Assembly: GCA_964542475.1 (NCBI GenBank)
Contig: CAZIUL010000009.1
Location: 65,818 to 129,817, forward strand
Origin: an uncultured Phycisphaerales bacterium
Lineage (GTDB): Bacteria > Planctomycetota > B15-G4 > CAYZWU01
Direction of reading: 5' to 3'
DNA: 64,000 nt
Shown here: one piece after another, positions 12,511-61,651 of the stretch
Position numbering within the stretch: the stretch's first letter is position 1
Layout: every line of letters starts with the position of its first letter
Notes under the pieces: generated by a model
Seen by the model: only the letters and a program-made list of their open reading frames with translations
Told to the model about the DNA's origin: nothing
The model's database searches: none
Made by a program: the position numbers and the translations under genes

Positions 12511-12587
12511 CGGTTTCTACGCAAGAACCGCATCGGGGGATAACGCTTGGGTCATTATTTAAACTTCGAACCATTCATGTAACCCCC

Positions 12588-14367: not shown

Positions 14368-14476
14368 GAACAGGGCCCGTATCAAATCGTCATCACGAAG
14401 CAGGGGGACAGGTTTTGATTTGTAACGTATCAAAACCCGTCCCCCTGCATTTTAAATCATGTCGGCAGTGCTGTCG

Positions 14477-17400: not shown

Positions 17401-18575
17401 CGTTCAAACCATAAAGCTTGCGCTGCAGCTCGGTATCCAGACGGATACAGATCGAACTTGCCTTGACTCCCAAAGGGCTGAATAACCTTTCGTTGGACAG
17501 CTCGCAGATCGTAAACGGCGGAGTGCCTGAAATATTCTCGAAGTCCGCGTCATAAAGGGCGGTCTCTGAGCAGACCAGCATCATGTGCTGTTTCGTTGCC
17601 ACAATCGACTTGACACCTACCTTGGTCATGTTGAAAAACGTATACCCCAGAAACTCGAACTCATCCGAGCCTGCTTCCATCATCGCAAGATATCCAAGCT
17701 CGGAGAATGTCTCGTCAACAGCCGTGTACATGACTGAATCATCGTATGCGAGAAATATGTTCTCCTCACTGACGGTATCCCCATCAAGGTCCGAGCCCTG
17801 GATGTTATCGCTGTCAAAATCAAGGGGCTGATCGAACTGAATCTCGATGTCCCTTGGCGCGGGAAAACCCTGCAACTCGCCTGAAACACTGTTGATGGGG
17901 AAATCCACGGTGCCGTCCACAGGATCGGTGGTCACCACTCCGGGTGGCAGGACCGGCTGGTTCTTGAAGAAAAAAGCAGGCATTTCTTCGGGCCAGGTTG
18001 TAAACTCGATCGGAAAATCCACACCTGGATCAATGGCAACCAGATCTTCGATACTCCCCGATGTTCCGGTCGGTACAAAAACGGTGTATGTATAACCCGG
18101 CAGAAGACCCGGGACGTTTTGGGCCACCGCATTTATCGAAAGATCGATCTCCCCCGTGGGTATATAGGGAGTAAAAACAACTACGTTGTCCATGATCTCG
18201 TATGTGCCCCTGGCAACGATTAGGTTCTTTGTCCCATCGAGAGCAACATCCGGGCCCTGATAATCCAAGCCGGGGTTGGCATTGATGAGAATGTTCCCTG
18301 AATGGACATCACCCGCTACCGGATCGGAAAAGGTGAACAGGACCTGCTGGCTCAACGGCACATTCGCAGGAGGTGTTTTCGTAGCTCCTGACAAGTCGGT
18401 GTATTCGGGAAAGGTTATGGATGTCAGCGTCTGGCCTTTGTATCCGGCCCCTCCATGTCCGCCGCCGCCGCCACCGCCGCCGCCGCCGCAGCTCGACAGG
18501 GCAAACGTAAACAGGAACGAGCAAAACAAAACCACTGAAAACCGAGCAGGATGAAATGCCTTAAACCGTTTCATG
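14477..18575 (-). CDS. Giant predicted surface lipoprotein, paralogue B (~1365 aa) with poly-Gly tether and internal Gly-rich / beta-helix-like repeats
   Basis: Likely start MKRFKAFHPARFSVVLFCSFLFTFALSSCGGGGGGGGGGHGG (AAGGA SD upstream). The track ORF begins 17 codons earlier at a GTG/TTG-type start. Internal tracts GGQGGGGGGS, KGGGGGGGSGS, GGRGGGGE, and the motif GGAIILNSAKTITIEENGCLNVAGG. Collagen-like PGGPPGPGGGRGG. Confidence 0.7.
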
Positions 18576-18667
18576 GTTCCAATTCCTTTATATTGAAAAC
18601 CGAGCCATACAATAAAAACTCGCATTTCCTGTACAAAAACTACGGCATCAGCTTCCAGATGCCATTG

Positions 18668-21600: not shown

Positions 21601-21952
21601 GCTTCTTCACTTGGTTAAGCGGCATGCCAGGATCGAAAAGCGATTTGGGGTAACCGCTCACCAGGAGTCCGGTGATGGGGTCCGTCTCGATAATGGTTTC
21701 CGGGCTGACCACTTCAGCAACATTCCCCGCAGGATCAAGCAGTGACCTTCCGAAATATATCTCTTCCAGATAAAATTCGCTATCCCCTTGTTGCCCACCG
21801 GGATTGGAAGAACCACCTCCTCCACCCCCGCCGCCCCCGCCGCCCCCGCCGCCGCATCCCCCAAGAACCACGGCGACGACAAGAAAAGAACCAAAGCATA
21901 CCTTACCGAATCTAACTGCTGTGGACCCACTCATGTAACTTACCCTCAGCAA
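18668..21952 (-). CDS. Giant predicted surface lipoprotein, paralogue C (~1090 aa) with poly-Gly tether
   Basis: N-terminus ...MSGSTAVRFGKVCFGSFLVVAVVLGGCGGGGGGGGGGGGGGSSNPGG (ATG at 21934 with GAGG upstream, or TTG at 21952). Long Asp/Gly/Pro-rich body. 42 bp downstream of paralogue B. Confidence 0.7.
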   Translation of the reverse strand: MLRVSYMSGSTAVRFGKVCFGSFLVVAVVLGGCGGGGGGGGGGGGGGSSNPGGQQGDSEFYLEEIYFGRSLLDPAGNVAEVVSPETIIETDPITGLLVSGYPKSLFDPGMPLNQVKKLDLGSFGLTDLPNSSFKVPIIPRNSVLILDFSKELDSKCLNLDGNGFLTAQSPVQIRTDIDNLISVEAVLFGDRLVLNPVVEGAVGFPASPLIFDQAGNPIASQDGYLRIRIYSEGTGNNVLQSATGTSLSAREDLLGTPGKPVGFNPGNTYLDFINFGDISFNGFLPDLTPPRIIREVRYPSDQDEEGSVGNGSGLTAIVDPDMGPIWDPQNPENSFNDEANGGDGEWAGALLTLRQNTATEEKVRVDHNTPDTLYIVGQFNVPPDPGIPGVQDPDEYHLQRAEFFEPIPGTGDPLAAVDPDNYPKDDDDLEDAKNSDLFNFVIWEEWNENDEIWEEVDYDPGSSGTNSVDSNWRLSFRFSEAMDPGSFRPYETFYVCKGSVNIEDPGFDYMKVGRTAARKSNSILSFEPIVDDQFGLTGEQLVGFGGQPKSLRMTIRTVPPDQVLNDFYDSFGDDLPEGVEEDLEKIGVLGVMSLGGQALGLPAYFFDKGSKWCVAYSDSTGYGAFPPAVDFKYEFNIQAAPDPESRPENGVLVHRFMGLPETGTVGNPPISGGIFYDHQVDGQGDPMVYGPHIADIALGLNGFLSGHSVEFIEHIFDEWNPPPPSSPHYPDPLFALPFGTGTPVNSSYGSRFQHTYRRGDCSPDILAYEDTVLDLIGLSWAPIGGWITNSVIEKMSILISLTNIVPLSNDDNCDGIPDHPQSGLVQNFNQNRQPYVHTVVLGKNNDGVPYSMDWHNLYAPKNAGSQNFFYYVPWPEFDKPVGNPGFEYDSNQSMLIEYRTDPNTKASASISNGFTYHAAILSSALPRFRVYTRGDDPTSPNSVIGLVYGCTQPGKYPNAQGPLTNFTGKYGDNSRYFMIFDYVKRKSTIVSPYLGTDIQGGYDMQFINPIILPDLENIPEGTGLDLSFQTTANPYIPGSQSGWVQPGEVMGFNVNMAYKNYNYIRFKALFTANVDAGVVPSIDSIVIPYLIVED

Positions 21953-22395: not shown

Positions 22396-22460
22396 TAACC
22401 CGATTATTTCATACTCTTCGTCGCGAGGTCCCCGAGCAGAATAGGATGAAAAAATCGGGC
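22396..22460. repeat. Family-A palindromic repeat (short hairpin copy)
   Basis: taacccgattatttcatactcttcgtcgcgaggt ... aggatgaaaaaatcggg, i.e. the motif plus a degenerate inverted partner. Confidence 0.6.
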
Positions 22461-22465
22461 TTAGT

Positions 22466-36086: not shown

Positions 36087-37118
36087 TCAACCCTTGATTC
36101 TGGATGCCAAGCCCATCGCCACCCCGAGGGACAGCGCATTCTCCGTGAGCAGTTCCGAATCCACCATGTCCGGATCCACGCCTACCCCGGCCACCGGGCT
36201 CCAGTAGATCGTTTTACGTTCAAAGATCTTTTCGAAGGCTTCGTCCAGGCCAAGCGCGCGACCCCCGCCGCCCGAAAGATAGATCGCCTCAACCTTGCTC
36301 TCGTACTGGTTTTCGTAATAGTCGAGAGAAAGGTTGATTTCGCTTCCCATCTCCTCGATTCCGGGGGCTATGGCATCCGCAACCTTGTCCGCTTCATCAC
36401 CGGGAGACCTCTTCATCTGCTCGCTTTCGAACAGCTCCAGGCCCTGCTTCTTTGCTATATATGAGGTGAAGTCGTTCCCACCCATGTAGATTTCGCGTGT
36501 AAAATACAACTCCATGCCCTGCAGGATGCTGATGCATGTCTTGTTTCCGCCTATGTCCAACAAGGCGACAACCTTGGTTTCCACGTCGTTTTCCGCGTTC
36601 ACGGAGTTCGAAAACTCGAAGGCGTTTGCCAGGGCAAAAACATCAACATCGGTAATCGCGGGCTGTAGGCCGCAGCCTTGCAGGAGCCGGTACTGATCTT
36701 CAACAACTTCTCTCATCACCGCGACCAGGATCACCCTCATTTCGTTTTTTGACAAACCGGTCGCTTCCTTCAGCCTCTGGCTGTCCAGCAGCACGTCATC
36801 GATCTCGAACGGTATGTATTTGTCAGCCTCGTACCGGAGCGCATTGTTGAGGTTATCGTCGGGCATCTCGATGATGTTGAGAAAGCGAACAATGACGGAT
36901 CTGCCGGAAACAGCCGTGGCCACACGTTTGCTTTTGAAGCGACAGGTGCGCAACAGCTCGCTCAAGGCGTCAGCCCTGGCATCTTCAGATGAAATATCTA
37001 TCTGGCCGTAACCGGTAATAATGTAATCATCTCGGTCAAATGAGAGCTCGATAGCCTTGATACATTCCGATCCCAGATCCAACCCTACGATAGACTTCCT
37101 TTTGCGCAAGAATACCAT
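36087..37118 (-). CDS. pilM: Type IV pilus assembly protein PilM (actin-like ATPase)
   Basis: N-terminus IVGLDLGSECIKAIEL. Actin/FtsA fold motifs (DIGGNKT..., GGGGRALGL). 343 aa. First gene of the operon. Confidence 0.9.
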   Translation of the reverse strand: MVFLRKRKSIVGLDLGSECIKAIELSFDRDDYIITGYGQIDISSEDARADALSELLRTCRFKSKRVATAVSGRSVIVRFLNIIEMPDDNLNNALRYEADKYIPFEIDDVLLDSQRLKEATGLSKNEMRVILVAVMREVVEDQYRLLQGCGLQPAITDVDVFALANAFEFSNSVNAENDVETKVVALLDIGGNKTCISILQGMELYFTREIYMGGNDFTSYIAKKQGLELFESEQMKRSPGDEADKVADAIAPGIEEMGSEINLSLDYYENQYESKVEAIYLSGGGGRALGLDEAFEKIFERKTIYWSPVAGVGVDPDMVDSELLTENALSLGVAMGLASRIKG

Positions 37119-37345
37119 TCCGGAGATCCTTATATATGCTGTTCGACGTGTATGATAGAACCCCTTTTCCCTTTAAACCCAGCCGATGTCTGATAGGGCA
37201 CAATCGGCGGTACTCTCGAATCTTCGGAAATTAACCTCCCTAACTTTAAACAAATCCCCATCCGCACGCCCACAAGGCAAAATTAGCGCGTCGAGCAATG
37301 CCGGCTGGTACGCAGGCAACCCACCCCTGAGGCTGTCAAGGGCTA

Positions 37346-37383
37346 TCCCGCATATTTCATCCTCTTCTGCTGCGGCACCGTAA
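37346..37383. repeat. Family-A repeat, solo copy (atcccgcatatttcatcctcttctgctgcggcaccgtaa)
   Basis: Exact match to the motif core. Generates the spurious ORF tail ...IPHISSSSAAAP in 37186-37383(+). Confidence 0.7.
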
Positions 37384-37445
37384 AGCGGGCTATGGCATCA
37401 AACGATATGAAAGGGAAAAAAGAGGGCGTGGGCAAAAAGCGATTA

Positions 37446-37706
37446 TCACTCGAAAAAGCCATTGGTCACGAGATCGACAAGCGAACAGATGAGCTCATCC
37501 GAATCAACGCCTTCGCTGATGAGTTCCATCTCATGGCCATAAGCACAGGCCAAGGTCATCAGTTGAATAATCGACTTTCCATCCACCGTGCAGCCATTGC
37601 ATGTAACAGTGAGACTCGCCTGGAACCGGGTGGAAATCTCCACGAATTTGCTAATAGGCCTCGCGTGAAGCCCGGCGCGGTTTGTAATCTTCACTTTCTT
37701 TCTCAA
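37446..37706 (-). CDS. ptsH: Phosphocarrier protein HPr / NPr
   Basis: KVKITNRAGLHARPISKFVEI... (the His-containing active-site region) and an overall HPr-like ~87 aa. No ATG in frame, so a TTG/GTG start near 37706 is inferred. The track ORF runs into the family-B repeat. Confidence 0.7.
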   Translation of the reverse strand: MRKKVKITNRAGLHARPISKFVEISTRFQASLTVTCNGCTVDGKSIIQLMTLACAYGHEMELISEGVDSDELICSLVDLVTNGFFE

Positions 37707-37744
37707 CTTATGGGCGTTCCGTACTCTGGCTGACCCTTGGTACA

Positions 37745-37903
37745 AGGGTCAGAGGTTGAGAGGTTGTGGAGAGCGATGATGATAATCGGACAATTCGAGG
37801 CTTGGCAGTCGGCACCGGTTCATCAATGTACAACAGGCCGAGGGTTTGATGCCGAGACTGATGCGGAGTTCAACGATGTCTACAGCAACCTTGAACCTCT
37901 GAA
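37745..37903. repeat. Family-B MITE-like element (~160 bp; TIR ggtcagaggttg ... caaccttgaacctctgaa)
   Basis: Highly similar to 42075-42236, including a conserved internal core (ccggttcatcaatgyacaaca.gc.gagggttt.at.cc.ag...agttcaacgat). Inserted between ptsN and hpr. Confidence 0.75.
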
Positions 37904-37917
37904 AACAAACGCGTGTA

Positions 37918-38379
37918 TCACTCGCTGAGTTCCTTGAGAATACCGCATATCTCTTTCCCGTTTTTAGCGTTTCTGACGAAACGACTGAAGTCCTGATGTC
38001 TCGCCATCCGGGAAATCCACTGGAGAATGCTCAAATGCTCTTCTGCGTGCCCGGTGGAAGAAACCAGGAGGAAAAGGATGTACACCGGTTCACCATCAAC
38101 TGCGCTGAAATCCACGCCCGCCTTCGAACGAGCCATAAGCATGAGCCGCTCCTGGCAACCGTCGATCTTCACATGCGGTATGGCCACCCCGTGCCCCAAC
38201 CCGGTGGATCCCAGTTTTTCACGATCGAGCAAAGCCTCAAAAGTGCTTTTCTTCTTGTTTTTCGGAAAGACACCTTGAGACACGGCGAAATCGAGCATCT
38301 CCTCGATCACCATTTTTTTCTCAACAGCCCCAAGGTCTTCGATTATATTATTTTCCTTAAACAATTGCAAATAAGACAT
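37918..38379 (-). CDS. ptsN: PTS EIIA(Ntr)-type nitrogen regulatory protein PtsN
   Basis: 153 aa. EIIA fructose/nitrogen-family fold with active-site His context GHGVAIPHVKIDG. Located in an rpoN cluster. Confidence 0.8.
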   Translation of the reverse strand: MSYLQLFKENNIIEDLGAVEKKMVIEEMLDFAVSQGVFPKNKKKSTFEALLDREKLGSTGLGHGVAIPHVKIDGCQERLMLMARSKAGVDFSAVDGEPVYILFLLVSSTGHAEEHLSILQWISRMARHQDFSRFVRNAKNGKEICGILKELSE

Positions 38380-38482
38380 CTATGCTCACCTCTTCAGTAA
38401 CGCGTCTTCGAAAAACAACAGTTAAGCATGCCTGATAAAGAGGCGCTCACGCATGCGCCAACGCTTGATTATAGAAAACATT

Positions 38483-38875
38483 TCAGGATTTCCCCTTGTA
38501 TTTTTTCCTGATAATTTCCTCGTAACTCAATTCATCATCCACATCCTGATCTGACTCAGGTTCGGGAGGTACACCTTTCACATGCCTATGGCCCCTCAAT
38601 CGCTCCTTGAAGCGCACCAGCTGTCTTTCCATTTTATCCATGAGCAAGTCTATAGCAGCATGTCCGTCCTGATGAGCCATACTCCCCACCAGCTGCTGAC
38701 CCCGCGAAACAGAAATGATCATCTCGACCGCATGCTTATCTTTTTCATTGTCGAGAATCACTTGCACCCTGGAGATGTTGTTAAAATACTTGATCAGCTT
38801 TTTCGCCTTGTCGCGAGCATAGTCCTTAATCTCTTGAGACTTGTTTTCATGCCTCCCGATTACTTCGATTTTCAA
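38483..38875 (-). CDS. hpf: Ribosome hibernation promoting factor (HPF / sigma-54 modulation protein)
   Basis: MKIEVIGRHENKSQEIKDYARDKAKKLIKYF... matches the YfiA/HPF family. Classic position downstream of rpoN. Confidence 0.85.
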   Translation of the reverse strand: MKIEVIGRHENKSQEIKDYARDKAKKLIKYFNNISRVQVILDNEKDKHAVEMIISVSRGQQLVGSMAHQDGHAAIDLLMDKMERQLVRFKERLRGHRHVKGVPPEPESDQDVDDELSYEEIIRKKYKGKS

Positions 38876-39029
38876 GTGGCCCTCCTTGCAATCAGCATAT
38901 TAAAAAGAGTCCTTTTCTCACCTACAACGCGCTACCCCTGTTGAAAACAGCAATAGCCCGGAGTTCATCCTGACATGCATCAGCAACCGATACGGGAAAC
39001 GATCCCTGGTTTTCCATAAGTAAGCCGAA

Positions 39030-39776
39030 TTAATAATTCACTCTCCACAAAAAAAGTCCTTTTGCCGGATATGTGGGCGGAGCAAGAGTCCTGTCCCCCG
39101 AATCGAGAATCTCTACAGCTCTCTTTTGCGATATGCTTCCGTCAGCCGTTGCCATGACGAAAGATACCATATTACGGACCATTCGGTAAAGGAACCCTTC
39201 TCCTGTGAAAAAAATTCTGACACATTCTTTTCGCCTCCTGACCTTGATCGACAGAATCCTGCGACGGCTGGACTTCACATCGGCGCCCGAAGCCCTCATT
39301 GCGGCAAAGTCCCGATCTCCCACTAGCAGCGAAGCAGCTTCGCGGATGGCTGCCTCACCAGGCAATTTACGAACACGGTGAAGGAAACGGCTTCTGAAGG
39401 GATCGTCAAACGGAGCTTCGACTATCTGATAAAAATAGGTCTTGTGGCGGACAGAGAACCTGGCATGGAAATCCAAGGGAACCCTCGATGCGCGAAGAAC
39501 TCTGATATCGCCCGGCAGAATGGCGTTCAGCCCCTTGACCAGGGTCTCTTCCGCGATCTCCTTGTCCAGATGAAACGAAGCAACCTGGCCAAGGGCGTGA
39601 ACTCCCGAATCGGTGCGTCCGGCGCCGGCGATGGAAACCTCTCTCCCGGTCAACCGGCTGATCCCGTCTTCGATAATCCCCCTCACTGTCCTTTCACCCT
39701 GAGCCTGTTTTTCCCATCCACAGAACCCCGTACCGTCATACGCAAAAATAAGCTTAAAGCAAAGATCCAAAGCCAT
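39030..39776 (-). CDS. truA: tRNA pseudouridine(38-40) synthase TruA
   Basis: FAYDGTGFCGWEKQ...AGAGRTDSGVHALGQV contains the catalytic Asp motif RTDxGVHA. Confidence 0.85.
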   Translation of the reverse strand: MALDLCFKLIFAYDGTGFCGWEKQAQGERTVRGIIEDGISRLTGREVSIAGAGRTDSGVHALGQVASFHLDKEIAEETLVKGLNAILPGDIRVLRASRVPLDFHARFSVRHKTYFYQIVEAPFDDPFRSRFLHRVRKLPGEAAIREAASLLVGDRDFAAMRASGADVKSSRRRILSIKVRRRKECVRIFFTGEGFLYRMVRNMVSFVMATADGSISQKRAVEILDSGDRTLAPPTYPAKGLFLWRVNY

Positions 39777-39867
39777 TCATCCGCCCAGGTGGTAAACTCG
39801 ACTCGTAAAGATCGAATTGAACCGATTCTTCAGCCCGCCCGGTTCGGCGCAGGCTTGTCTCTTTTCA

Positions 39868-41331
39868 TCAGTACACCCTTCTTTGCCGAGAGGAAGGCAC
39901 ATTCAACGCTTTTCTGTACTTGGTAACTGTCCGTCTGGCTATGCTGAGACCTTCCATCTCCAGGATTTTCATTATTTCCTGGTCTGACAACGGTTTCGTT
40001 TTGTTTTCGTTGTCGATCAGGTCCTTGACCTTCTGCTTGACTCCAACGCGCGATTCTACTTCACCGTCAGAAGACTTTGTAGCCCCGGTAAAAAAGCTCT
40101 TCAAAGAAAATATCCCCCTGGGCGCCTGGACATATTTGTCCGATATCGTACGGCTGATCGTTGAAACGTGGAGGCCAAGCTTGTCAGCCACCTCCTGCAT
40201 TTTCAGGGGTTTGAGGTGTTTTGTACCACGGTCAAGAAAATCACGCTGATGTTTCACAAGCACATCAACCACTCTTGAAAGCGTGCTTCTCCTCTGCTCA
40301 ATGGATTCGATGAGCCATTTGGCGGATTCGATCTTCTTGCGGAAGTGCATTCGCAGCTTTGGATCCAGGGACTTGTCCATGTACATCTTGAGATATGCTT
40401 CGCTGATTCCCAGTTTTGGGTAGTAGTCGTTCTGGAGCTGGATTTCGTACTCCCCGTCAATAAGCTCCAACACAACATCTGGATTGACATAAGGGATCGG
40501 GTCCGTCCTGAAAAGGCGTCCCGGTATTGGATCCAGATGGCTTATGTTCTCCAATGCATCCTGCACCTCTTCTATTGACCTGCTTGTTCGTTTCGCGATC
40601 TTGGGGAGCTGGTTCTTCGAAAGATCTTCGATGTGGTCTACAATGATCTTACGCATCAACTCATGGTCTGTGTGTGACGCATCCAGCTGGAGTAAAAGGC
40701 ATTCCCGAAGGTCTCTGGCACCGACCCCGGTTGGTTCGAAGGACTGAACCAGAACCAGGGCCTCTTCTTTCTTGGCTTGAGTATGATCTCCGGCTGATGG
40801 CATGTGGATCTCTTCCAGAGGATACAACAGGTAGCCGCGATCATTGATGTTGTAGATTATCTGCTCCGCAATAATCCTGATGTCCTGATCACAATCGGAC
40901 AGGCCCAGTTGGTTCTTCAAATGGTCCTGCAGCGTCATCGGCCGTGACATCGTGTTTTGCATCGCCCGGAACTTTGGATCATCCTCGCCGCTTTTGTGGC
41001 TGGAGCCGGTTCTCGTCCGATCCTTGTTCATTTCGATCATGTTTTTGAGACGCTCCATCTCTTCATCCAAGGAGAAGGAATCGTCATCGTCACCGTCTCT
41101 AGCGTCGTCCCCGTTTCCGTCGATGCTATCGCTCCGGTCAGAGCCTTCCGTCTGCTTGATCTCTTCCAGCGGCTCAACCTGCTCGAGAACTTCGTTTTCC
41201 ATCAGCTCGTTCTCTATGAGCTCCTTGAGATCCATGGACTGCAGCTGCAGAATCTCGATCCGCTGTATAAGCTGCGGAGACATCTTGAGCTTCTGCTCAA
41301 GACGCATGTTCTGCATGAGTTCCAGCTTCAT
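39868..41331 (-). CDS. rpoN: RNA polymerase sigma-54 factor RpoN
   Basis: N-terminal Gln/Leu-rich region I (MKLELMQNMRLEQKLKMSPQLIQRIEILQLQ). Acidic region II. C-terminal HTH and RpoN box ARRTVTKYR. Confidence 0.95.
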   Translation of the reverse strand: MKLELMQNMRLEQKLKMSPQLIQRIEILQLQSMDLKELIENELMENEVLEQVEPLEEIKQTEGSDRSDSIDGNGDDARDGDDDDSFSLDEEMERLKNMIEMNKDRTRTGSSHKSGEDDPKFRAMQNTMSRPMTLQDHLKNQLGLSDCDQDIRIIAEQIIYNINDRGYLLYPLEEIHMPSAGDHTQAKKEEALVLVQSFEPTGVGARDLRECLLLQLDASHTDHELMRKIIVDHIEDLSKNQLPKIAKRTSRSIEEVQDALENISHLDPIPGRLFRTDPIPYVNPDVVLELIDGEYEIQLQNDYYPKLGISEAYLKMYMDKSLDPKLRMHFRKKIESAKWLIESIEQRRSTLSRVVDVLVKHQRDFLDRGTKHLKPLKMQEVADKLGLHVSTISRTISDKYVQAPRGIFSLKSFFTGATKSSDGEVESRVGVKQKVKDLIDNENKTKPLSDQEIMKILEMEGLSIARRTVTKYRKALNVPSSRQRRVY

Positions 41332-41344
41332 GATCAGCCCAGCC

Positions 41345-41941
41345 CTACAGTTTCATCGCTATTCTGTCAGCGAGCGCGTCCGACAGCATGGCCTGGTTTG
41401 CGTATTCGATCTTAGATCCCGTGGCAATGCCGCGCGCTATCCTTGTGATCATTATTCCGGTTCCTTCCAGTTTCCTGGCCAGCAAAAGGGCGGTTCCATC
41501 TCCCTCGAAATCCGGATTTGTTGCAATAATGATCTCCTTCGCCTCACCTTCATTGGCTCGATTCAGAAGAGCCTCCAACGTCAGGTGCTCCGGCAACACA
41601 CCCTCAATCGGATCCAGCGCCCCTTGCAAAACGTGATACAGCCCCCTCCAGCCGGCATCCTCCAGGGCGGTTAAATCGCCCAGCCCTTCAACAACAAGGA
41701 TCCTCTCCCTGTCCCGGTCAGGGGACCGGCAGATGGGACAAGGATCGTCTTCCGAGGTATTGAAACAGATGGAGCAGGACCTGCTTTTTTCCGCAACCAT
41801 CCGAACGGCATCGGCAAGCGCAAGAGCATTGAGCTTGCCGCTCCTCAGAAGGAAAAGCGTCATCCGCTCCGCTGTTTTCTCTCCTATTCCAGGGAGCTTT
41901 TTGAACTCCCCTATCAAACTGTCAATACACTCGGGATACAT
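41345..41941 (-). CDS. recR: Recombination protein RecR
   Basis: HhH motif LPGIGEKTAERM. C4 zinc finger CSICFNTSEDDPCPIC. Toprim domain. 198 aa. Confidence 0.95.
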   Translation of the reverse strand: MYPECIDSLIGEFKKLPGIGEKTAERMTLFLLRSGKLNALALADAVRMVAEKSRSCSICFNTSEDDPCPICRSPDRDRERILVVEGLGDLTALEDAGWRGLYHVLQGALDPIEGVLPEHLTLEALLNRANEGEAKEIIIATNPDFEGDGTALLLARKLEGTGIMITRIARGIATGSKIEYANQAMLSDALADRIAMKL

Positions 41942-42074
41942 GTCATACCATCGCTAAAAAAGTGACAATCTCCTGTGGTAACAACTATCGGCGACCGGTT
42001 ACGCCTTCATGCATAGATTATACTCGAAAAAACCCGGGGTTTCCAGTTAGTGGGGAGAAGGATGGATTTCTTTT

Positions 42075-42236
42075 GGTTCAGAGGTTGTAGAGGGGGATGA
42101 TGAAAATCGAGTGATTCGAGGATAGGAGGATTGGCAGTTGCCGCCGGTTCATCAATGCACAACAAGCAGAGGGTTTAGATACCAAGGCCGATTCGTAGTT
42201 CAACGATCTCCACCGACAACCTTGAACCTCTGAACC
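42075..42236. repeat. Family-B MITE-like element, second full copy
   Basis: ggttcagaggttgtagagg ... caaccttgaacctctgaacc. Collinear with 37745-37903. Lies between recR and ybaB. Confidence 0.75.
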
Positions 42237-42247
42237 TCGAACCTCCG

Positions 42248-42568
42248 CTAAAACATGCCTGGAAACGTCAATCCTCCCGTCAGCTTGGACAGCTCATTTT
42301 CCTGCAGCTCCTTTGCCGCGGTGAGCCCCTGCTTCACTGCAGCCACGACCATGTCTTCCAGCAGTTCGACATCTTCAGGATCCAGAACGCTTGGATCTAT
42401 CTTGATCGAGAGGAGTTCCCTGCTTCCGTTTACCCGGGACACGACAGTCCCGCCTCCAGCCGATCCTTCGATAACCTTCGATTTCAACTCTTCCTGGATC
42501 CTTGTCACATCTTTCTGCATTCTCTGGGCTTGCTTCAAAAGGTTGGAAAAATCTCCTAATCCACTCAT
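42248..42568 (-). CDS. ybaB: Nucleoid-associated protein YbaB/EbfC
   Basis: Start MSGLGDFSNLLKQAQRMQ at 42568 (ATG verified) with a GGAGAG SD. The track ORF is extended 25 codons from a TTG. Confidence 0.9.
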   Translation of the reverse strand: MSGLGDFSNLLKQAQRMQKDVTRIQEELKSKVIEGSAGGGTVVSRVNGSRELLSIKIDPSVLDPEDVELLEDMVVAAVKQGLTAAKELQENELSKLTGGLTFPGMF

Positions 42569-42623
42569 GTGTCTCTCCTGCTCATATCCGTGGTTTACCG
42601 CACAACTCAGCATCCGGTCCCGG

Positions 42624-44303
42624 TCAGACGAGGTCCCCTTCAAAATGGTCTATTGTCTTCCGGACAATGGGAGGTATTTCCTTTTTGCCCGAATGCGGCG
42701 CCGCTTTCACAGAAAAACCGAACTGCCTTCCGAAAACGCTCTTCGAGGCGTTATCGACCGTTTTCATGTTCTCTTTGCTGTTCAGGCTAAAAACAGTTCC
42801 GCCCTCCTTCTCCTCTGGATCAAGCAGCTCAAAAGATTTACCGTCAAAGGAAATGATCTCCAGCCGTCTGAGATATGTTGCCAGGGTTTTCGATCGCTTC
42901 TCGACCTCACCGAGGATCTTCGAAAAGACGGCTGAAGGGGTTTCTCCCTCTAGAGACGAACCCGCCGGGACTGAAGAGGCGCTGCCACGCGACTCCCTCT
43001 TTTTTCCGCTCCCGGGTGGTGGTTGGGACGGATGCCCGGATACGGGTTTCCTTCCGGCGGGCTTGTTTCGCGGGGATCCCTTGCCGGTTTCAGGGTCAGC
43101 GCCGGATGGCGACGGAGCTACCGGACCCGCTTTCCCAGCGGCAGCCCCGCCTGCACCGCGGTCTTCTCTGCCGCCGCCTTCTCCCAGCGACCGCATGGCA
43201 TCGGACAGTGCCATCGAATAAGAAAAGCGGGCCATCTTCAGAAGGGACATCTCCGTAAGCACTCTTTCATCATCGAACCAGCGGGTCTTTCGCAAGGCTT
43301 CCAATGTAATCTGCAAGCAACCCAGAATACGATCCAGGTCGGTTCTCTCCGCCTGCTGCCTGCATCTCTCCTCAAGTCCGGACAGGCTGTTTGTGATGTC
43401 CTCCCTCGCCCCTGCCGCAACAAGCATCAAAGCCCGCAGGTAATCAAGCAGGTCTTTCAACAGATCCTCCCCCTGTGTACCGGATTCATACACGCGATCT
43501 ACAAAATCGAGAACCATGGAAAGGTCTTCATCCAGAACACCATCCATCAGATCAGCGATATCGCTCGGTGAAAGCCTTCCGGTAAGCGAGTTCAACGACT
43601 CGAAGTCCGCACATCCTCCACCCAGCGCGGCAACCTGGTCAAGGAGGGATTCGGCATCCCTCAACCCCCCCCTGGACAATGCGGCTATCCTCTGCAGAAC
43701 CCCGGTATCGCATTCAATCGACTCGGCCACGGCGATGTTTTCAAGCCTCGCTGCGATGTCCGAACTCGATATGCGCCGGAACTCATAACACTGGCACCGG
43801 GAGCGCACCGTCTCCGGCATCTTCTGCGGTTCTGTTGTAGCAAAAATGAACTTTACATGCTCGGGCGGCTCCTCAAGCGTCTTGAGAAGCGCGTTGAAGG
43901 ATTCCATGGTAAGCATGTGCACTTCGTCTATTATGTAGATCTTGTGACGGCTGTTGGCAGGAACATACCTGACGTTTTCCCTTAGAGCGCGTATGTGGTC
44001 TATGCCCCTGTTGGATGCGGCATCGATCTCCACAACATCCATATCATTACCGCTTACAATCGAGACACATCGCTCACACTTCAGGCACGGCTCAGCGGTT
44101 GGTCCCTCCTCGCAGTTCAGAGCCTTGGCCAGGATGCGCGCCATCGATGTCTTTCCGACTCCGCGCGGACCGGAGAACAGGAAAGCGTGTGCGACACGCT
44201 CCTTTTTTATGGCGTTTTCGAGTGTCCTGGAAATCCACTCCTGGCCGATTATCTCCTTGAATGTGCCAGGTCTGTACTTCCTTGCAAGAACTGTATACGA
44301 CAT
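42624..44303 (-). CDS. dnaX: DNA polymerase III subunit tau/gamma DnaX
   Basis: AAA+ clamp-loader motifs (GPRGVGKTS, DEVHML, SRC). C-terminal Pro/Gly/Ser-rich tau linker. In-frame A AAA AAG heptamer at 42999-43005. Confidence 0.9.
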   Translation of the reverse strand: MSYTVLARKYRPGTFKEIIGQEWISRTLENAIKKERVAHAFLFSGPRGVGKTSMARILAKALNCEEGPTAEPCLKCERCVSIVSGNDMDVVEIDAASNRGIDHIRALRENVRYVPANSRHKIYIIDEVHMLTMESFNALLKTLEEPPEHVKFIFATTEPQKMPETVRSRCQCYEFRRISSSDIAARLENIAVAESIECDTGVLQRIAALSRGGLRDAESLLDQVAALGGGCADFESLNSLTGRLSPSDIADLMDGVLDEDLSMVLDFVDRVYESGTQGEDLLKDLLDYLRALMLVAAGAREDITNSLSGLEERCRQQAERTDLDRILGCLQITLEALRKTRWFDDERVLTEMSLLKMARFSYSMALSDAMRSLGEGGGREDRGAGGAAAGKAGPVAPSPSGADPETGKGSPRNKPAGRKPVSGHPSQPPPGSGKKRESRGSASSVPAGSSLEGETPSAVFSKILGEVEKRSKTLATYLRRLEIISFDGKSFELLDPEEKEGGTVFSLNSKENMKTVDNASKSVFGRQFGFSVKAAPHSGKKEIPPIVRKTIDHFEGDLV

Positions 44304-44663
44304 TTGATCCCATCCAAACGACTACCGCAACGAAAAGGGCCGTGCGCCGTTTATCGAGGAATCCGCACTTCCTGAAAAACCCGCTGAAGCTCAGTCCGAG
44401 TACTCCCTCACACCTAAGATCAAAATGCTTATGGCTGCTCCCGTCAGGGCCTGACCAGGTTCACACCTTCTTACCGTAAAGGAACTCTTTCCTCAACACT
44501 CCAATCGGGCAACCGGAAAGCACCGATATCCCCTCAAAACGGCATCACCCCCGCGTATAGAGGATTTCGGGTACAAGGCACCCCTAATGCCCCGGCTGCA
44601 CGGCCAAATTATATATGCTAAAAACCTCTCTGCCGGTACACATCGTACAAGCAGGTTGATGGC

Positions 44664-44756
44664 TGGCGGAGAGGGCGGGATTCGAACCCGCGAGGCAGGG
44701 AATACCCGCCTACACGCTTTCCAAGCGTGCTCTTTCGGCCACTCAGACACCTCTCC
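44664..44756 (-). tRNA. tRNA-Ser (anticodon GGA), class II, CCA encoded
   Basis: The reverse complement folds by hand into a cloverleaf. Acceptor stem GGAGAGG/CCTCTCC. Anticodon loop TTGGAAA. Long variable arm. T-arm GCGGGTTCGAATCCCGC. Confidence 0.8.
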
Positions 44757-44885
44757 AGAACAGTTACATTACAAAAGAACGCTTCGATATCAGCCGACAT
44801 CTCTTTCAGCCCTGCATCAAGCGGGCTGTGTTATCCCCGGGCCCTCCTGTCAGCATCCCCGCTCCTCAAGGGACGGTGAAAAAAG

Positions 44886-44975
44886 TGGCGGAGAGGGAGG
44901 GATTCGAACCCCCGGGCCCATTACTGGGCCAACGGTTTTCGAGACCGCCCCGATCGACCGCTCCGGCACCTCTCC
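44886..44975 (-). tRNA. tRNA-Ser (anticodon CGA), class II, CCA encoded
   Basis: Acceptor stem GGAGAGG/CCTCTCC. Anticodon stem-loop GCGGT-CTCGAAA-ACCGT. Long variable arm. T-arm GGGGGTTCGAATCCCTC. Confidence 0.8.
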
Positions 44976-45149
44976 GCTTCTGGAAAATCAAACCGAAGAA
45001 ACCCGCTAACCGGGGTACCATCGGACAAAAACAGATCCAAAGAGGCCGGGAAGGCGCAACAGCAAAGGCAAGCCAAATAGCCTTTCCATGGATCTTCAGG
45101 GATTTTATCCGTTTTTTTGCAGAAATAAAAACAAAAATACGAGAGGGCA

Positions 45150-45240
45150 AGCCCGCATATTTCATCCTCTTCTGCTGCGGTACCGTAATCTGCGCTGCGG
45201 CTGCGTTTCATGCCGGGAAACGATCCTCAACCTGTAGGAC
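45150..45240. repeat. Family-A element, truncated copy (left ~90 bp) abutting the tadA stop
   Basis: gcccgcatatttcatcctcttctgctgcggtaccgtaatctgcgctgcggctgcgtttcatgccgggaaacgatcctcaacctgtagga aligns base for base with the right half (reverse complement) of the 12331-12510 element. Confidence 0.7.
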
Positions 45241-45242
45241 AA

Positions 45243-45713
45243 CTATCGCTTGGACCTGAAAAAACTCTGCAAAAGAGCCCGGCAGTCATGCTCCAGCACT
45301 CCAAAATCAATGGAAAGGGAATGGTTCAAGGCGGGATGCCCCGCTACATCGATGACAGATCCGCAAGCGCCCACTTTGAAATCAGGGGTTCCTATGACAA
45401 GGCGTTGCACTCTGGCGTGAACAAGTGCACCGATGCACATCAAGCAAGGTTCTTTGGTGACAAAAACCTCCACGGAAGTAAGCCTTTGAGCTTCCATGAC
45501 GGCACAAGCCTGAGTGATTCCGATCATCTCCGCATGCGCGGTGGGATCGCCAAGGCCCTCACATTGATTTCTCGACCGTGCAATGACCTTGTCGCCATGA
45601 ACGAACACGGCGCCAACAGGGATCTCTTCTTGATCAGCCGCTGCCTCGGCCTCGAGCAATGCGATTCTCATGTAGCCTTTGTCTCTTTCAGACACAGTCA
45701 TGTTGCACCTCAC
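45243..45713 (-). CDS. tadA: tRNA-specific adenosine deaminase TadA
   Basis: CMP/dCMP deaminase zinc motifs HAEMIGI and PCLMCIGAL. 156 aa (start may be the internal ATG MTVSER). Confidence 0.85.
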   Translation of the reverse strand: MRCNMTVSERDKGYMRIALLEAEAAADQEEIPVGAVFVHGDKVIARSRNQCEGLGDPTAHAEMIGITQACAVMEAQRLTSVEVFVTKEPCLMCIGALVHARVQRLVIGTPDFKVGACGSVIDVAGHPALNHSLSIDFGVLEHDCRALLQSFFRSKR

Positions 45714-46223: not shown

Positions 46224-46466
46224 ATGGCAGCGAAGAAGAAGACCAAGAAGGTGGCGAAAAAGAAAAAAGTCGCCAAGAAAAAGAAGGTGGTCAAGAAAAA
46301 GGTAGCCAAGAAAAAAACAAAGAAGAAGGCGAAGAAAAAGGTAGCCAAGAAAAAAGTCGCCAAGAAGAAGACAACCAAGAAGAAGACAAAGAAGAAAGCA
46401 AAGAAAAAGGTAGCTAAGAAGAAGAAGACAAAAAAGAAAGCGAAGAAAAAAGCAAAGAAGCGTTAA
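46224..46466 (+). CDS. Histone H1-like Lys/Ala-rich basic protein (about 80 aa of KKxAKKK repeats)
   Basis: AAGGAG SD 8 nt upstream of ATG. Entire ORF is (V/A)KKKxKKK repeats with strong codon periodicity. Terminator immediately downstream. The antisense ORF 46200-46508 is just the complement. Confidence 0.7.
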   Translation: MAAKKKTKKVAKKKKVAKKKKVVKKKVAKKKTKKKAKKKVAKKKVAKKKTTKKKTKKKAKKKVAKKKKTKKKAKKKAKKR

Positions 46467-46495
46467 TCGAGCAACATCTTCGTGACCGTAATCCG

Positions 46496-51410: not shown

Positions 51411-51427
51411 GGTTCAGAGGTTCAAAG
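51411..51427. repeat. Family-B repeat, left-end fragment (ggttcagaggttcaaag)
   Basis: Matches the left terminal inverted repeat of the 42075 and 37745 copies. Together with the right-end fragment at 54656-54684 it brackets the YfhO gene 51500-54442. Confidence 0.5.
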
Positions 51428-51499
51428 TTCTAGGTTTAAGGATACAGCCTGTAAGCATGGGAACCTGTTGTCAATCATTGATTTAGCAGGTGGATCATG

Positions 51500-54442
51500 T
51501 CAGGCCGGGGTCTCCCGCTTTTGCATTAGCCTGGTCAGGCCAGGCACTACAATGAACGCGAGGCACAAAAGAAGCGATGATAAAGCGATGTAGATCCCGC
51601 CATAAAAGGATGAGGGAGAGTACCTGAACTCAACCTCGTGCAGCCCCTCCTTCGCAAGCGGAACAGCACGAAAGCATGCGGTTGTTTTCAGTATCTGGAC
51701 CTCTTCACCATCCACAAACGCCTTCCAGCCGGGAAAATGGTTGTCTGTCAAAACAAGAAGCACCGGGCCTTCGTTTTTCGCCGAGAGACGGACATACTCG
51801 CTTTCGTAAACCTGGATATCCACCGACCCTTTCCCGCCCTTGGCAATGGGAGGCTCATTATGAAGAACCGGTTTGTTTCGCAGGTCGCTCCTCAAAACAT
51901 CCTCTATCGGATGGTCTTGCAGGTTGATCCAATCACCAACGATAAAGGCCCGCTTTCTTGCGTTGGTGTTTTCGTAGATCCTGACCTTTCCGTCGAAAAC
52001 CAGTTTGAACTTCTCGATCTTCGTCAAATCAAATTCGTTTTTGACAAGAACATACTTGATCCCCATGAAATCAAACAACGGGTGTTCCAGGTTGAAGTTC
52101 AAAACATTCAACTCGCGCGGCTTGGCAAGATGATCTCTTTTTATGTGATTGCATACTTTCCAGTACCCGTCGATTCCCAACCGATCATCCCACTCCATGT
52201 GTTCTATTCCGTACGGAAAGTTCGTGTTGGGCTGGAGTATGCCTCCTTCCGCGAAGATCCTGAACGGTTTTTCCCGGCTTGCAAAAAAATCGGTCACATC
52301 GGTGGGAGGATAGATGTCCTCTGTCGCTGATGTCTTGTTGTACCCCAGTCCAAAACAGCAAAGATCCAGGCCCAGCACCACAATCACCAGGGCGGCACGA
52401 AAAGCCGGGGGAAAGGTCCTGCTGAGCAGAAACAGAAACACCGCGACCGACAGGCAGAAAACAAGAAGGTCCTTCCGCGTCACGGTCTTTTCCCGGACAA
52501 GGCGCACATCGACCCAGTCGCCGTAAACGGCTTCTGAATCACCCTGGTTCGCACCGCCAGACTTCGACGGCATAACCCGTAGCTTATAAGTGCCCTCATC
52601 CAATGTGTCCAACGGATACGATAGCTCAAAACTTTTCGGGTACTTTTCGAGAGTAGCCCTATCTAACGATGCCGAGGGTTGATCCGTGCCTTCCTGTACG
52701 GCCGCGGCCCGGCCGGATTCTGTCTCCAGGCCGGAGGCATCGACCGTGCGCACGTCGCCCGCGAAAAGGTTGTCCAGGGTCGCGCGGACGTGCTCCACAT
52801 CCCGCGCAGCCCTTCCCCTGATCACGAACTCGTCGAGCCCGTTCTGAATGGTGCCCTTGACAGGGGAAGAGATGAGGATCTTGGCCTCTGCCGGGCTATC
52901 CTCTCCCATCAGCTCCTTTCCGGTTTCGAAAAAAGTCCACCCTGACACAATGACAGCCCACAATACGACCAGAGATGCCACTACAACACCACAGACGGCA
53001 GCGCTTTTTCCCCTGATGTTTGCGGCCCTGAACAGGAGATCCTCCAAGCCGAACGGCGCGATCACCGCGATTGAAAAGGCGGTGACGCATAAGAGTGAGC
53101 TGTTGTGGATCCAGCCCAGGAAAGGGACGGCCTTCAGGATGTGCACGAGCCAGGGTATGCTGTGCACCGCGCCAAAAGAAAAAATGAATAAAAAGATGAA
53201 GAACTGCAGCGGCCGTCTTTTACAGGGAGCGACAAATGTATACAGGGCCAAAAAGGCGGTGATGACCCCTACATAACCGCCGTTCAGTGCAGAATACGAG
53301 ATATCTCCAACCGTCCGGCACCCCCCATTCGCTGCACCGTACAGCTCCGGGAACACCTGCATCAAAAGATGCGGCTTCGCACCCAGCCAGAACCCGATCC
53401 TGAGCGCCACGATGAGGCATAAACCGCCGAGGAGGCCGGACCATACACCGATAAAGATCGTGTTTTTCCGCTGCAGGAGACCGATGGACGCACCCACAAA
53501 GACCGGAAAGAGCAGGCCCATGAAGACACCGAAAAATGTCAGGAGCCTGCCCGCCCCCCCGTTTAGAAACTCGCTCCAGTTTCCGATTCTCATCTCAAGG
53601 CCATAGCTGTGCCTGAGGTATTCGAAAAAGGGCAGCAGCTGAAACGAGGCAAGGGCCGCGCCGAGTAAACCGGCTAGCGCGCCGTAAAAAAGCAGTGACA
53701 GGCCTTCGGATCCGAAAAACTCCGCCTCCTGCCTGATACGATACAGCAGATATAGCGCCCATGACAAAAACAGGACAAAAGAAGTTTCCGGGCTTCCTCC
53801 CAGGAACTGCAGTCCGAGGAGAACAGCGTTGAAAACGATCGTGACACCAGTTCTTCTTTTCAGGTAAAACTCCACTGCCAGAAACAGCGCCGGCAGGAAA
53901 AGAGCAACATTGGAATGGGGATGGTTCATCCAGCATACCTGGAATCCGCTGAACCCGAAGGCTATTGCCCCTACCAGGCAGCTCAAAAATCGAAGCCCAT
54001 AGGTACGGAGAAGCATGTAGGCGAACACAGCGCCGGCCAGGAGCTTCAAGCCTCCTGCCAGGCTCCAGAACAGATCGAACGGCACAACCAACCCAAGCCA
54101 GTTAAGGGGATAAAAACATGCACAGGACATGTTCCCCATGAACGGCGTACCCCCGCCGGCCAGGTGCGTCCACAAAGGGATTCTGCCCTGGCGAATAGCA
54201 TTCCATGTGTGCTGCATCCAGGGGAGAACGACAAGCGCCTGATGATCAAGGGCCGGATTGAACGCGGCTGAGCTGTCGCGTTCCGAGTTTTCCCACGGCT
54301 GGATCGAGTAAAGAGGTTCGATGCATATCCCGGCTCTTGAGCTGAACAGCCCGTCCGAAACCAGAAAGGCGGCAAAACACAAGAACAGGAGTACCGCAAT
54401 AATACCTTTTCTCATGGTTTTGAAATTTCCGCTGTCATTCAT
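51500..54442 (-). CDS. YfhO-family polytopic membrane glycosyl-/arabinosyl-transferase-like protein (980 aa)
   Basis: About 14 predicted TM helices in the N-terminal 500 aa. Large periplasmic C-terminal part ending with the YfhO-type motif VLTDNHFPGWKAFVDGEEV...HEVEFRYSP and a final TM helix. Confidence 0.65.
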   Translation of the reverse strand: MNDSGNFKTMRKGIIAVLLFLCFAAFLVSDGLFSSRAGICIEPLYSIQPWENSERDSSAAFNPALDHQALVVLPWMQHTWNAIRQGRIPLWTHLAGGGTPFMGNMSCACFYPLNWLGLVVPFDLFWSLAGGLKLLAGAVFAYMLLRTYGLRFLSCLVGAIAFGFSGFQVCWMNHPHSNVALFLPALFLAVEFYLKRRTGVTIVFNAVLLGLQFLGGSPETSFVLFLSWALYLLYRIRQEAEFFGSEGLSLLFYGALAGLLGAALASFQLLPFFEYLRHSYGLEMRIGNWSEFLNGGAGRLLTFFGVFMGLLFPVFVGASIGLLQRKNTIFIGVWSGLLGGLCLIVALRIGFWLGAKPHLLMQVFPELYGAANGGCRTVGDISYSALNGGYVGVITAFLALYTFVAPCKRRPLQFFIFLFIFSFGAVHSIPWLVHILKAVPFLGWIHNSSLLCVTAFSIAVIAPFGLEDLLFRAANIRGKSAAVCGVVVASLVVLWAVIVSGWTFFETGKELMGEDSPAEAKILISSPVKGTIQNGLDEFVIRGRAARDVEHVRATLDNLFAGDVRTVDASGLETESGRAAAVQEGTDQPSASLDRATLEKYPKSFELSYPLDTLDEGTYKLRVMPSKSGGANQGDSEAVYGDWVDVRLVREKTVTRKDLLVFCLSVAVFLFLLSRTFPPAFRAALVIVVLGLDLCCFGLGYNKTSATEDIYPPTDVTDFFASREKPFRIFAEGGILQPNTNFPYGIEHMEWDDRLGIDGYWKVCNHIKRDHLAKPRELNVLNFNLEHPLFDFMGIKYVLVKNEFDLTKIEKFKLVFDGKVRIYENTNARKRAFIVGDWINLQDHPIEDVLRSDLRNKPVLHNEPPIAKGGKGSVDIQVYESEYVRLSAKNEGPVLLVLTDNHFPGWKAFVDGEEVQILKTTACFRAVPLAKEGLHEVEFRYSPSSFYGGIYIALSSLLLCLAFIVVPGLTRLMQKRETPA

Positions 54443-54655: not shown

Positions 54656-54684
54656 CAACCTTGAACCTCTGAACCTTGAACCTC
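54656..54684. repeat. Family-B repeat, right-end fragment with internal duplication (caaccttgaacctctgaaccttgaacctc)
   Basis: Matches the right terminal inverted repeat of family B. Confidence 0.5.
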
Positions 54685-61611: not shown

Positions 61612-61651
61612 TAACCCGCATATTTCATCCTCTTCTGCTGCGGCACCGTAA
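61612..61651. repeat. Family-A repeat, solo copy
   Basis: taacccgcatatttcatcctcttctgctgcggcaccgtaa. Generates the spurious ORF tail ...NPHISSSSAAAP. Confidence 0.7.

Follow-up and report, generated by a model that had tools for sequence, protein, structure and literature searches.

Two miniature elements in a Phycisphaerales contig as probable derivatives of an array-flanked PF05635 gene cassette

The stretch of DNA analysed here, called the window, comprises 64,000 nucleotides (nt) from an uncultured Phycisphaerales bacterium (Planctomycetota; assembly GCA_964542475.1, contig CAZIUL010000009.1, positions 65,818 to 129,817) and carries two copies of a ~160-bp inverted-repeat element, copy A at 37745-37903 and copy B at 42075-42245, both read on the + strand; positions are window coordinates throughout, unless another contig is named. 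These elements are read as miniature, non-coding deletion derivatives of a cassette in which a PF05635 gene is enclosed by inverted tandem arrays, the miniature form having been formed once and later copied, a reading to which a probability of about 0.8 is attached. It is carried by the interior, which follows the PF05635 protein in order, and by the deletion boundaries that the two copies share.

The elements and their interior

The preliminary description of this DNA had reported two copies, which both direct reading of the sequence and blastn of A against the window bear out. A and B are 78% identical over 160 nt (E = 3.7e-32), or 73.5% over 170 columns when gap columns are counted, and their end-to-end alignment is broken only by one 8-nt indel and a few 1-nt indels. 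The elements, 159-171 bp in size, lie 4.3 kb apart in unrelated flanks, and A was 100% identical in all six contigs retrieved, which come from several metagenome assemblies. Terminal inverted repeats, also reported, are present at both ends, but they are built of an 8-nt unit (GGTTCARG on the left, CYTGAACC on the right) in short tandem arrays and are not a simple repeat, and the ends had to be corrected: the left end of A is GGGTCAGAGGTTG, with one mismatch to the motif quoted earlier and an extra repeat unit at 37746-37766, and the right repeat of B (CAACCTTGAACCTCTGAACCTCGAACCTC) reaches 42245, beyond the end first given. A has ~2.5 units on the left, the first being GGGTCA, and ~2 on the right; B has 1.5 and 3.5 (Table 1). 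A perfect 9-bp palindrome, TGACCCTTG-GTA-CAAGGGTCA, at 37731-37751 overlaps the left end of A, and its left arm resembles one inverted unit of the arrays, placed directly against the element.

When 185,579 species genomes were scanned for the core GGTTCATCAATGNACAACA, 22 loci matched, roughly as many as an 18-base pattern was estimated to hit by chance. At one of these, L021, in a metagenome-assembled genome of the Deltaproteobacteria, the match extends over 58 nt and falls within a gene of 127 amino acids that belongs to PF05635, the '23S rRNA-intervening sequence protein' (E = 8.8e-29), and also to TIGR02436, 'four helix bundle protein'. Read with frameshifts, the elements repeat the order of the L021 protein: left array, a GGAG resembling a ribosome-binding site (RBS), ATG ATG, pieces of the open reading frame (ORF), and right array. 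The pieces are MKIE*FED.EDWQL (residues 1-13) and, after a gap of ~29 codons, AAGSSMHN.AEG(F/L)D....F.D(V/L) (residues ~43-67), and the conserved core GGTTCATCAATGYACAAC is the most conserved motif of the protein family (GSSMHN).

This correspondence was examined at the level of both protein and DNA. With a protein hidden Markov model (HMM) of 120 family members, run with the speed filters off, the element segments rank first and second of 1,784 six-frame segments, each with E of only ~0.9 because the frameshifts fragment the signal. Frameshift-tolerant local alignment of protein to DNA scored 66.9 for A and 62.2 for B, against 26.8 +/- 4.7 (maximum 57.0) for the 504 other 250-nt bins of the window, taken on both strands; when the residues of the search seed were masked, the scores were 57.1 and 40.1 against 25.7 +/- 4.5. 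Comparison by blastn with three full-length cassettes from other bacteria, described below, yielded collinear DNA blocks for the array, the ORF start, the mid-ORF and the array. A nucleotide HMM of five full-length ORFs, arrays excluded, was run on the whole window with nhmmer, and its top three matches all lie within the elements, on the + strand and collinear (A 37787-37877, E = 4e-7; B 42140-42201, E = 1.1e-5; B 42100-42142, E = 0.019), the fourth match in the window having E = 0.12. The match at 42100-42142 covers HMM positions 1-44, that is, the ORF start, and is independent of the search seed. The ORF-start block of A aligns column for column with that of B and is 8 nt shorter; its GAGGCTTGGCAGT matches GAGGCATGGCAGT of the L071 cassette, to which the ORF start of B is 78% identical over 41 nt (blastn).

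The conserved interior is thus read, from sequence, as a dead PF05635 gene, its conservation being explained by descent from a protein-coding gene. A protein product is ruled out by the frameshifts and stop codons, B having a stop at codon 5 and frameshifts or stops in every frame. A small protein from A was considered separately and rejected: the 63-amino-acid ORF on the + strand there matches only itself among 5.8 billion proteins, and B has no equivalent ORF.

The preliminary description had judged the interior more conserved than expected of a decaying miniature inverted-repeat transposable element (MITE) and had suggested a small structured RNA. That premise fails because the identical positions of A and B show no significant clustering (P = 0.195 for the best 33-column window, P = 0.119 for the longest run of identity), and the conservation is accounted for by PF05635 descent. 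It is very improbable that the elements are a small RNA or a cis-regulatory RNA whose structure maintains the interior. Some interior helices are indeed predicted in both copies, but they lack covariation: in the RNAalifold consensus, which with two sequences has low power, they are invariant or changed on one side only, and two compensatory pairs extend the terminal stem. The interior is moreover collinear with a protein gene, no convincing promoter/terminator pair was found at the elements, and the elements are not conserved at the orthologous position in three syntenic relatives (L060, L061 and L062). Rfam had no match at the elements, either at gathering thresholds on the whole window or at E <= 1 on 37300-42400, and minimum free energies are only 1.1-1.9 standard deviations (SD) below those of dinucleotide shuffles (z = -1.1 to -1.9) on either strand.

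Still less credence is given to a generic palindromic repeat native to the genome, of the repetitive extragenic palindromic (REP) or bacterial interspersed mosaic element (BIME) type, with a resemblance to PF05635 that is coincidental. The existence of 'empty' array hairpins without a gene on other contigs does show that the arrays occur apart from PF05635, but the three collinear nhmmer blocks fall correctly between the arrays, and the ATG and RBS sit just inside the left one.

The probable parent cassette and the origin of the miniature form

The L021 gene lies between gatC and gatA, with ~12 tandem GGTTCA(R)GG units upstream and their reverse complement downstream, the same motif as at the termini of A and B. 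A homology search with its protein gave 5,575 relatives (E <= 1e-10). Identity is 85-100% in the best 120 distinct 90%-clusters, which come nearly all from contigs of a few kb or less; the named members among them are Desulfobacterales/Deltaproteobacteria. Retrieval of the contexts of five members gave five full-length cassettes at four operon sites (Table 1), with a common layout: an upstream GGTTCARGG tandem array, a leader of ~45-150 nt, a PF05635/TIGR02436 gene for ~127 amino acids, and a downstream [CCYTGAACC]n array. In all five the gene is co-oriented with both neighbours and has GGTTCA-type arrays upstream and TGAACC-type arrays downstream, and the arrays can pair over 26-63 bp (-44 to -89 kcal/mol).

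A distant PF05635 paralogue at L037 (35% identical) has the same architecture with another unit, ~15 copies of GGTGTTTG upstream (L037 11885-11990) and CAAACACC-type units downstream (12440-12515). Because a different unit surrounds a distant paralogue, the sequences suggest that array and protein co-vary and that each protein recognises its own arrays. The PF05635 gene of L047 is without arrays. A scan of viral contigs for the array motif gave 20 loci, none with a PF05635 gene adjacent, and several of these are 'empty' hairpins of the form [GGTTCA]n - short loop - [TGAACC]n (Table 1); neither the deletion junction nor the ORF start of the cassette was found on viral contigs. Since array-motif loci, the 'empty' hairpins included, occur on viral contigs without PF05635, the arrays are the constant part and the interior the variable one. 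Some 'empty' hairpins are bordered by an A-run and a T-run, like bidirectional terminators.

The parent architecture is probably new. The literature searched held no description of array-flanked PF05635 cassettes outside rRNA or in operon spacers, which is weak evidence, as subscription journals lie mostly outside the coverage; a PF05635-type gene between gmk and nadD in Flavobacterium is listed without comment (PMC5524665).

In all their large differences from the full-length cassette A and B agree: the near-absent leader, the deletion of ~29 codons (29 amino acids), which has the same junction in both (TGGCAGT-N7-GGTTCA), and the junction between ORF remnant and right array. Because these junctions are shared, the most parsimonious history is that the miniature form arose once and was then copied. 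The disabling mutations are copy-specific, an 8-nt loss and a -2 frameshift in A, and the stop at codon 5 with further frameshifts in B. A full-length cassette would have been reduced to one miniature element that kept 1-3 units per array, the RBS, the first ~13 codons and ~20-30 mid-ORF codons, and this element would have been copied to a second locus 4.3 kb away, presumably by MITE-like mobilisation in trans via the terminal arrays. It is unlikely that, instead, the two sites received separate full-length cassettes that were reduced in situ to similar miniatures, the miniature form itself never having moved. Deletions between short direct repeats can recur, and certain junctions could be promoted by the arrays and by microhomologies (GAGG..GAGG, ..EF../..EF..), but all large boundaries are common to A and B, and four or more identical independent events are improbable. 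The element was probably acquired horizontally, since its closest full-length relatives are from the Desulfobacterales/Deltaproteobacteria, the host belongs to the Planctomycetota, and three syntenic relatives lack the insertion.

A number of observations weigh against derivation of both elements from such a cassette by a single reduction and subsequent copying. The deletion history is ambiguous in the 3' part, where two alignments are possible: one, from nhmmer, ends in a truncation near residue 67, and the other has a second deletion, of residues 61-91, which brings in TDAEFNDVYSN, matching the family's TDAEFQDVYDH; the junction is common to A and B either way. The ~22% divergence between the copies implies long residence or descent from diverged masters. 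Hand-repaired peptides had no match in Pfam at E <= 10, being short and interrupted, and one locus outside the elements, +13956-14080, scores 57 in the frameshift-tolerant alignment, as high as A with the seed masked. This locus, the sole high-scoring one of its kind, was judged a chance match and not a PF05635 relic; it is antisense inside a 309-amino-acid ORF (13504-14433, - strand) and has no arrays. As to mobility, neither the window nor the three relatives yielded a PF05635 gene of full length, and there is no known autonomous partner in the host window. The cassette contains no recognisable recombinase, which leaves its movement without a known mechanism, and no direct repeat that could be a target-site duplication was found beside A, B or the five full-length cassettes, the relatives being too distant to define the exact empty site. 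Finally, 71 kb of host contig (the window and an extra 7 kb) contains no copy beyond A and B.

Beyond the host contig, exact scans with the 19-nt core detected only PF05635 genes and chance matches, and no further miniature copies, in the 185,579 species genomes and in the JGI metagenome collection; the scans of these two large collections could detect only copies that match all 19 nt exactly, and the JGI collection does not include the source sample.

Host operons and the present-day hairpin

All neighbouring genes are on the - strand (Table 1). A lies between ptsN and hpr, with 14 nt between its end and the ptsN stop codon (37918-37920), and B between ybaB and recR, with 2 nt between its end and the ybaB stop codon (42248-42250), so that the flanking genes had been correctly named. 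The further claim, that the insertions are inside conserved operons, holds for A and only in part for B, as the ybaB-recR spacer has a terminator-like hairpin and a promoter-like site and is already 200-380 nt long in relatives without the element. The hairpin (AAACCCCGGGTTTTTT, - strand), at 42017-42046 between B and recR, overlaps the promoter-like TGGAAA-17-TATAAT, and because of these two features recR probably has its own promoter and is transcribed separately. L061 and L062 have a similar motif, TCCCTG.AACTC...GTTATGGG.TATATT, upstream of recR.

Comparison with orthologous loci, which the preliminary description had proposed, was made with L060, L061 and L062, in which RpoN is 62-65% identical and the whole gene order is kept; the best named relatives of the host RpoN are from the Planctomycetota. 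None of the three has the insertion: neither blastn nor tblastn found a trace of the element, and the spacers are unrelated at both sites. Because three syntenic relatives are without the element at both sites, it is taken, on this comparison, to be a lineage-specific insertion and not an ancient regulatory feature.

A preference for insertion at stop codons is possible. The upstream array starts 0-3 nt from the stop of the preceding host gene (gatC at L021 ~3266-3270; ybaB, in host orientation, at window 42245-42250), and at L063 2423-2457 the host ORF, DUF72, reads through the array to a stop at the array end.

The inverted arrays would fold into a hairpin of ~20 bp in whichever strand is transcribed. 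The array duplex of A comprises 20 bp, with -27.3 kcal/mol in the sense and -24.0 in the antisense direction against -13.6 +/- 3.3 for shuffled sequences; that of B comprises 22 bp, with -27.1 against -19.8 +/- 3.5 kcal/mol. Since the remnant is read from the + strand and the host genes are encoded on the - strand, the elements are antisense to the host transcripts; this orientation is weak evidence, as recombination between the inverted arrays could flip the interior. Within the ptsN-hpr and dnaX-ybaB transcripts the hairpin would accordingly be that of the antisense strand. A role as intrinsic terminator was rejected, there being no T-run after the hairpin on either strand, and because this terminator tail is lacking, transcription is expected to read through the element.

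The element is most likely a tolerated selfish relic. Compatible with the favoured origin, and given a lesser but not negligible share of credence, is co-option of the hairpin: it would serve as a signal for processing, by RNase III or otherwise, or for stability, and would uncouple ptsN from hpr and set the 3' end of dnaX-ybaB. Co-option would explain the survival of a relic through ~22% divergence, and the stems of 20-22 bp in both orientations, the two compensatory base pairs by which the terminal stem is lengthened between A and B, and a third array pair, potentially able to form a duplex of 27-33 bp around a native gene, are in keeping with it. There are precedents. The Correia/nemis hairpins of Neisseria are cut by RNase III in mRNAs. 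The stems of rRNA intervening sequences (IVSs) are RNase III substrates (PMC4990558), to which the hairpin here may plausibly be likened as a substrate. Against co-option, the outermost pairs of A have been lost uncompensated (GGG versus AAA), the B duplex energy is only ~2 SD better than shuffled, the syntenic relatives do without the element, and covariation between two sequences has no statistical power.

Known systems and other features of the window

MITEs such as Correia/nemis of Neisseria and ERIC (enterobacterial repetitive intergenic consensus) of enterobacteria are 100-170 bp, non-coding, bounded by terminal inverted repeats, situated in operon spacers and co-transcribed; the Correia/nemis and ERIC hairpins can be targets of RNase III or RNase E, and MITEs derive by deletion from a larger element or are its non-autonomous partners. 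A and B are alike in being of similar size (below 500 bp), non-coding, and bounded by terminal inverted repeats that pair over 20-22 bp. The MITE-like character proposed in the preliminary description therefore stands as regards small size, inverted termini, lack of coding capacity, presence at two loci with shared junctions and absence from three relatives. It does not extend to the parent: classical MITEs come from transposase-encoding insertion sequences and make target-site duplications, whereas the parent that shares these termini encodes only the PF05635/TIGR02436 four-helix-bundle protein and no known transposase, and is not found in the host window, no target-site duplication is seen, and two copies are documented in 71 kb.

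Doublets of REP sequences (REPINs) and their mobilising transposases (RAYTs) provide another parallel, in that REPINs are hairpin-forming inverted repeats, dispersed between genes and mobilised in trans. REPs differ, however, in being unique palindromes of 20-40 nt and not tandem arrays, and their mobiliser is a Y1 transposase (the RAYT). The only lead of this kind here is a weak Y1_Tnp (PF01797) match near the L063 cassette, in a 219-amino-acid gene at L063/L065-L067 4104-4763, two genes downstream of the cassette in the lexA-DUF72-dinB-dnaE2 locus.

The IVSs of 23S rRNA that contain an S23p/PF05635 ORF, as in Leptospira and Coxiella burnetii, have the same protein family in their interior, decayed here and intact in the parent cassettes, and likewise complementary termini that form a stem around the insert (20-22 bp in the miniatures, 26-63 bp in the full-length cassettes). 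The S23p ORF of IVSs tends to decay, with reductive evolution in Coxiella, and the sporadic distribution of IVSs suggests horizontal transfer, their mobility having long been suspected and never shown (PMC4990558). Unlike the elements, which occupy protein-gene spacers in a window without rRNA, IVSs reside in helix 25/45 of 23S rRNA; they have a unique inverted repeat in place of tandem arrays of an 8-nt unit, and are 428-759 bp long, against ~160 bp with ORF fragments only. The element works like a MITE and like an rRNA IVS, yet fails defining features of both. Avd of diversity-generating retroelements resembles PF05635 in sequence and structure (PMC10053308), which hints, by analogy, at nucleic acid or a polymerase as the binding partner of the cassette protein; no retroelement parts (reverse transcriptase, template repeat or variable repeat) were found beside any cassette examined.

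The origin, mobility and function of the 23S IVS and its S23p/PF05635 ORF have been open questions since the early 1990s (PMC4990558), and PF05635/TIGR02436, a very large family, has no annotation beyond 'four helix bundle protein'. The window connects a recurring array cassette in several lineages with 'empty' hairpins and with a miniature derivative at two loci in a different phylum. We tentatively propose, as a conjecture with somewhat less than an even chance, that array-enclosed PF05635 genes form an unrecognised class of transposase-less mobile cassettes, which would invade operon spacers (and, as classical 23S IVSs, rRNA operons), ride on read-through transcription, and be released or insulated by cleavage of the stem. 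If so, A and B, which have the same deletion junctions at both loci, would be the first evidence that an element needs nothing but its arrays to be mobilised in trans; and if the pattern is general, the IVS would be one manifestation of a broader operon-invading element and its mobility would become a testable hypothesis. The main value of the elements is as a pointer to that broader, apparently undescribed cassette. They also carry a warning for annotation: conserved, 'RNA-like' intergenic repeats can be dead gene cassettes.

Table 1. Features of the two elements, their surroundings and related loci (window coordinates, unless a contig or locus is named)
Feature	Position or site	Strand	Remarks
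Copy A, left terminal array GGGTCAGAGGTTGAGAGGTTG	37746-37766	+	~2.5 GGTTCARG-type units; matches upstream arrays of L021/L063/L071 cassettes
Copy A, RBS-like GGAGAG, tandem ATG ATG and remnant of first ~13 codons of PF05635 ORF (MMIIGQFEAWQSA)	37767-37814	+	translation; aligned with B
Copy A, frameshifted mid-ORF remnant ..GTGSSMYN / GRGFDAE / TDAEFNDVYSN	37787-37889	+	family residues ~39-64, possibly 92-102; nhmmer, frameshift-tolerant alignment
Copy A, right terminal array CAACCTTGAACCTCTGAA	37886-37903	+	94% to L071 downstream array
Copy B, left terminal array GGTTCAGAGGTTG	42075-42087	+	12/12 identical to L063 upstream array unit
Copy B, RBS-like GAGGGGG, ATG ATG and ORF-start remnant MKIE*FED(R)EDWQL	42088-42142	+	in-frame stop, one frameshift; nhmmer, blastn
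Copy B, mid-ORF remnant AAGSSMHN / AEGLDTKADS*FNDLH	42140-42216	+	fused to ORF start after ~29-codon deletion; nhmmer, alignment
Copy B, right terminal array CAACCTTGAACCTCTGAACCTCGAACCTC	42217-42245	+	~3.5 units; 85-88% to L063/L071 downstream arrays
Further array, same motif (GGTTCAGAGGTTCAAAGTTCTAGGT)	51411-51435	+	left member of pair 3.2 kb apart
Further array (CAACCTTGAACCTCTGAACCTTGAACCTC)	54656-54684	+	97% identical to B right array
dnaX	42624-44303	-	
ybaB	42248-42643	-	
recR	41345-41941	-	
rpoN	39868-41331	-	
truA	39030-39776	-	
hpf	38483-38875	-	
ptsN (PTS EIIA-2)	37918-38379	-	
HPr gene	37446-37706	-	
pilM	36087-37118	-	
CCCGCATATTTCATCCTCTTCTGCTGCGGYACCGTAA-core repeat copies	45130-45250; 12418-12507(-); 37339-37383; 61615-61651; 4076-4097; 22427-22462(-)		
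Full-length cassette L021	gatC/gatA		
Full-length cassette L063-L070	DUF72/dinB		within lexA-DUF72-dinB-dnaE2
Full-length cassette L071-L076	recB-like helicase/recD		
Full-length cassettes L099 and L100	DUF58/DUF8413		two different organisms; L099 is a 7.2-Mb Desulfobacterales chromosome
'Empty' array hairpins, IMG/VR contigs	L079 5290-5450; L081 290-370; L082 12000-12150; L085 9030-9090		

The third array pair of the window brackets the gene of a 980-amino-acid YfhO-like membrane protein (51500-54442, - strand), whose GC content overall and at third codon positions (GC3) is normal, as for a native gene. The potential duplex of the pair has -34.9/-42.6 kcal/mol, and neither a leader nor a remnant of a PF05635 ORF was found between the two arrays. 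The pair may consist of two half-relics, may form a long-range RNA stem that encloses a native gene, or may belong to a cassette that has swapped its cargo.

A second dispersed repeat family, with core CCCGCATATTTCATCCTCTTCTGCTGCGGYACCGTAA, has at least six copies of 37-90 nt that are 81-97% identical; Rfam gave no match in the region searched. One of the copies, only ~350 nt from copy A, is situated between pilM and the HPr gene. Directly upstream of dnaX, at 44340-44975 on the - strand, are a large-type bacterial signal recognition particle RNA (129 bits) and two tRNA genes. At 46239-46469 a tandem repeat of 12-15 nt codes for a tail rich in lysine and alanine (KKKVAKKK...), reminiscent of a histone H1-like protein. 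Low-complexity stretches rich in CCGCC, at 2547-2587, 15496-15779, 18435-18499 and 21804-21865, recur in large ORFs (e.g. one of 1,382 amino acids at 14477-18625) and are glycine-rich when read on the - strand.

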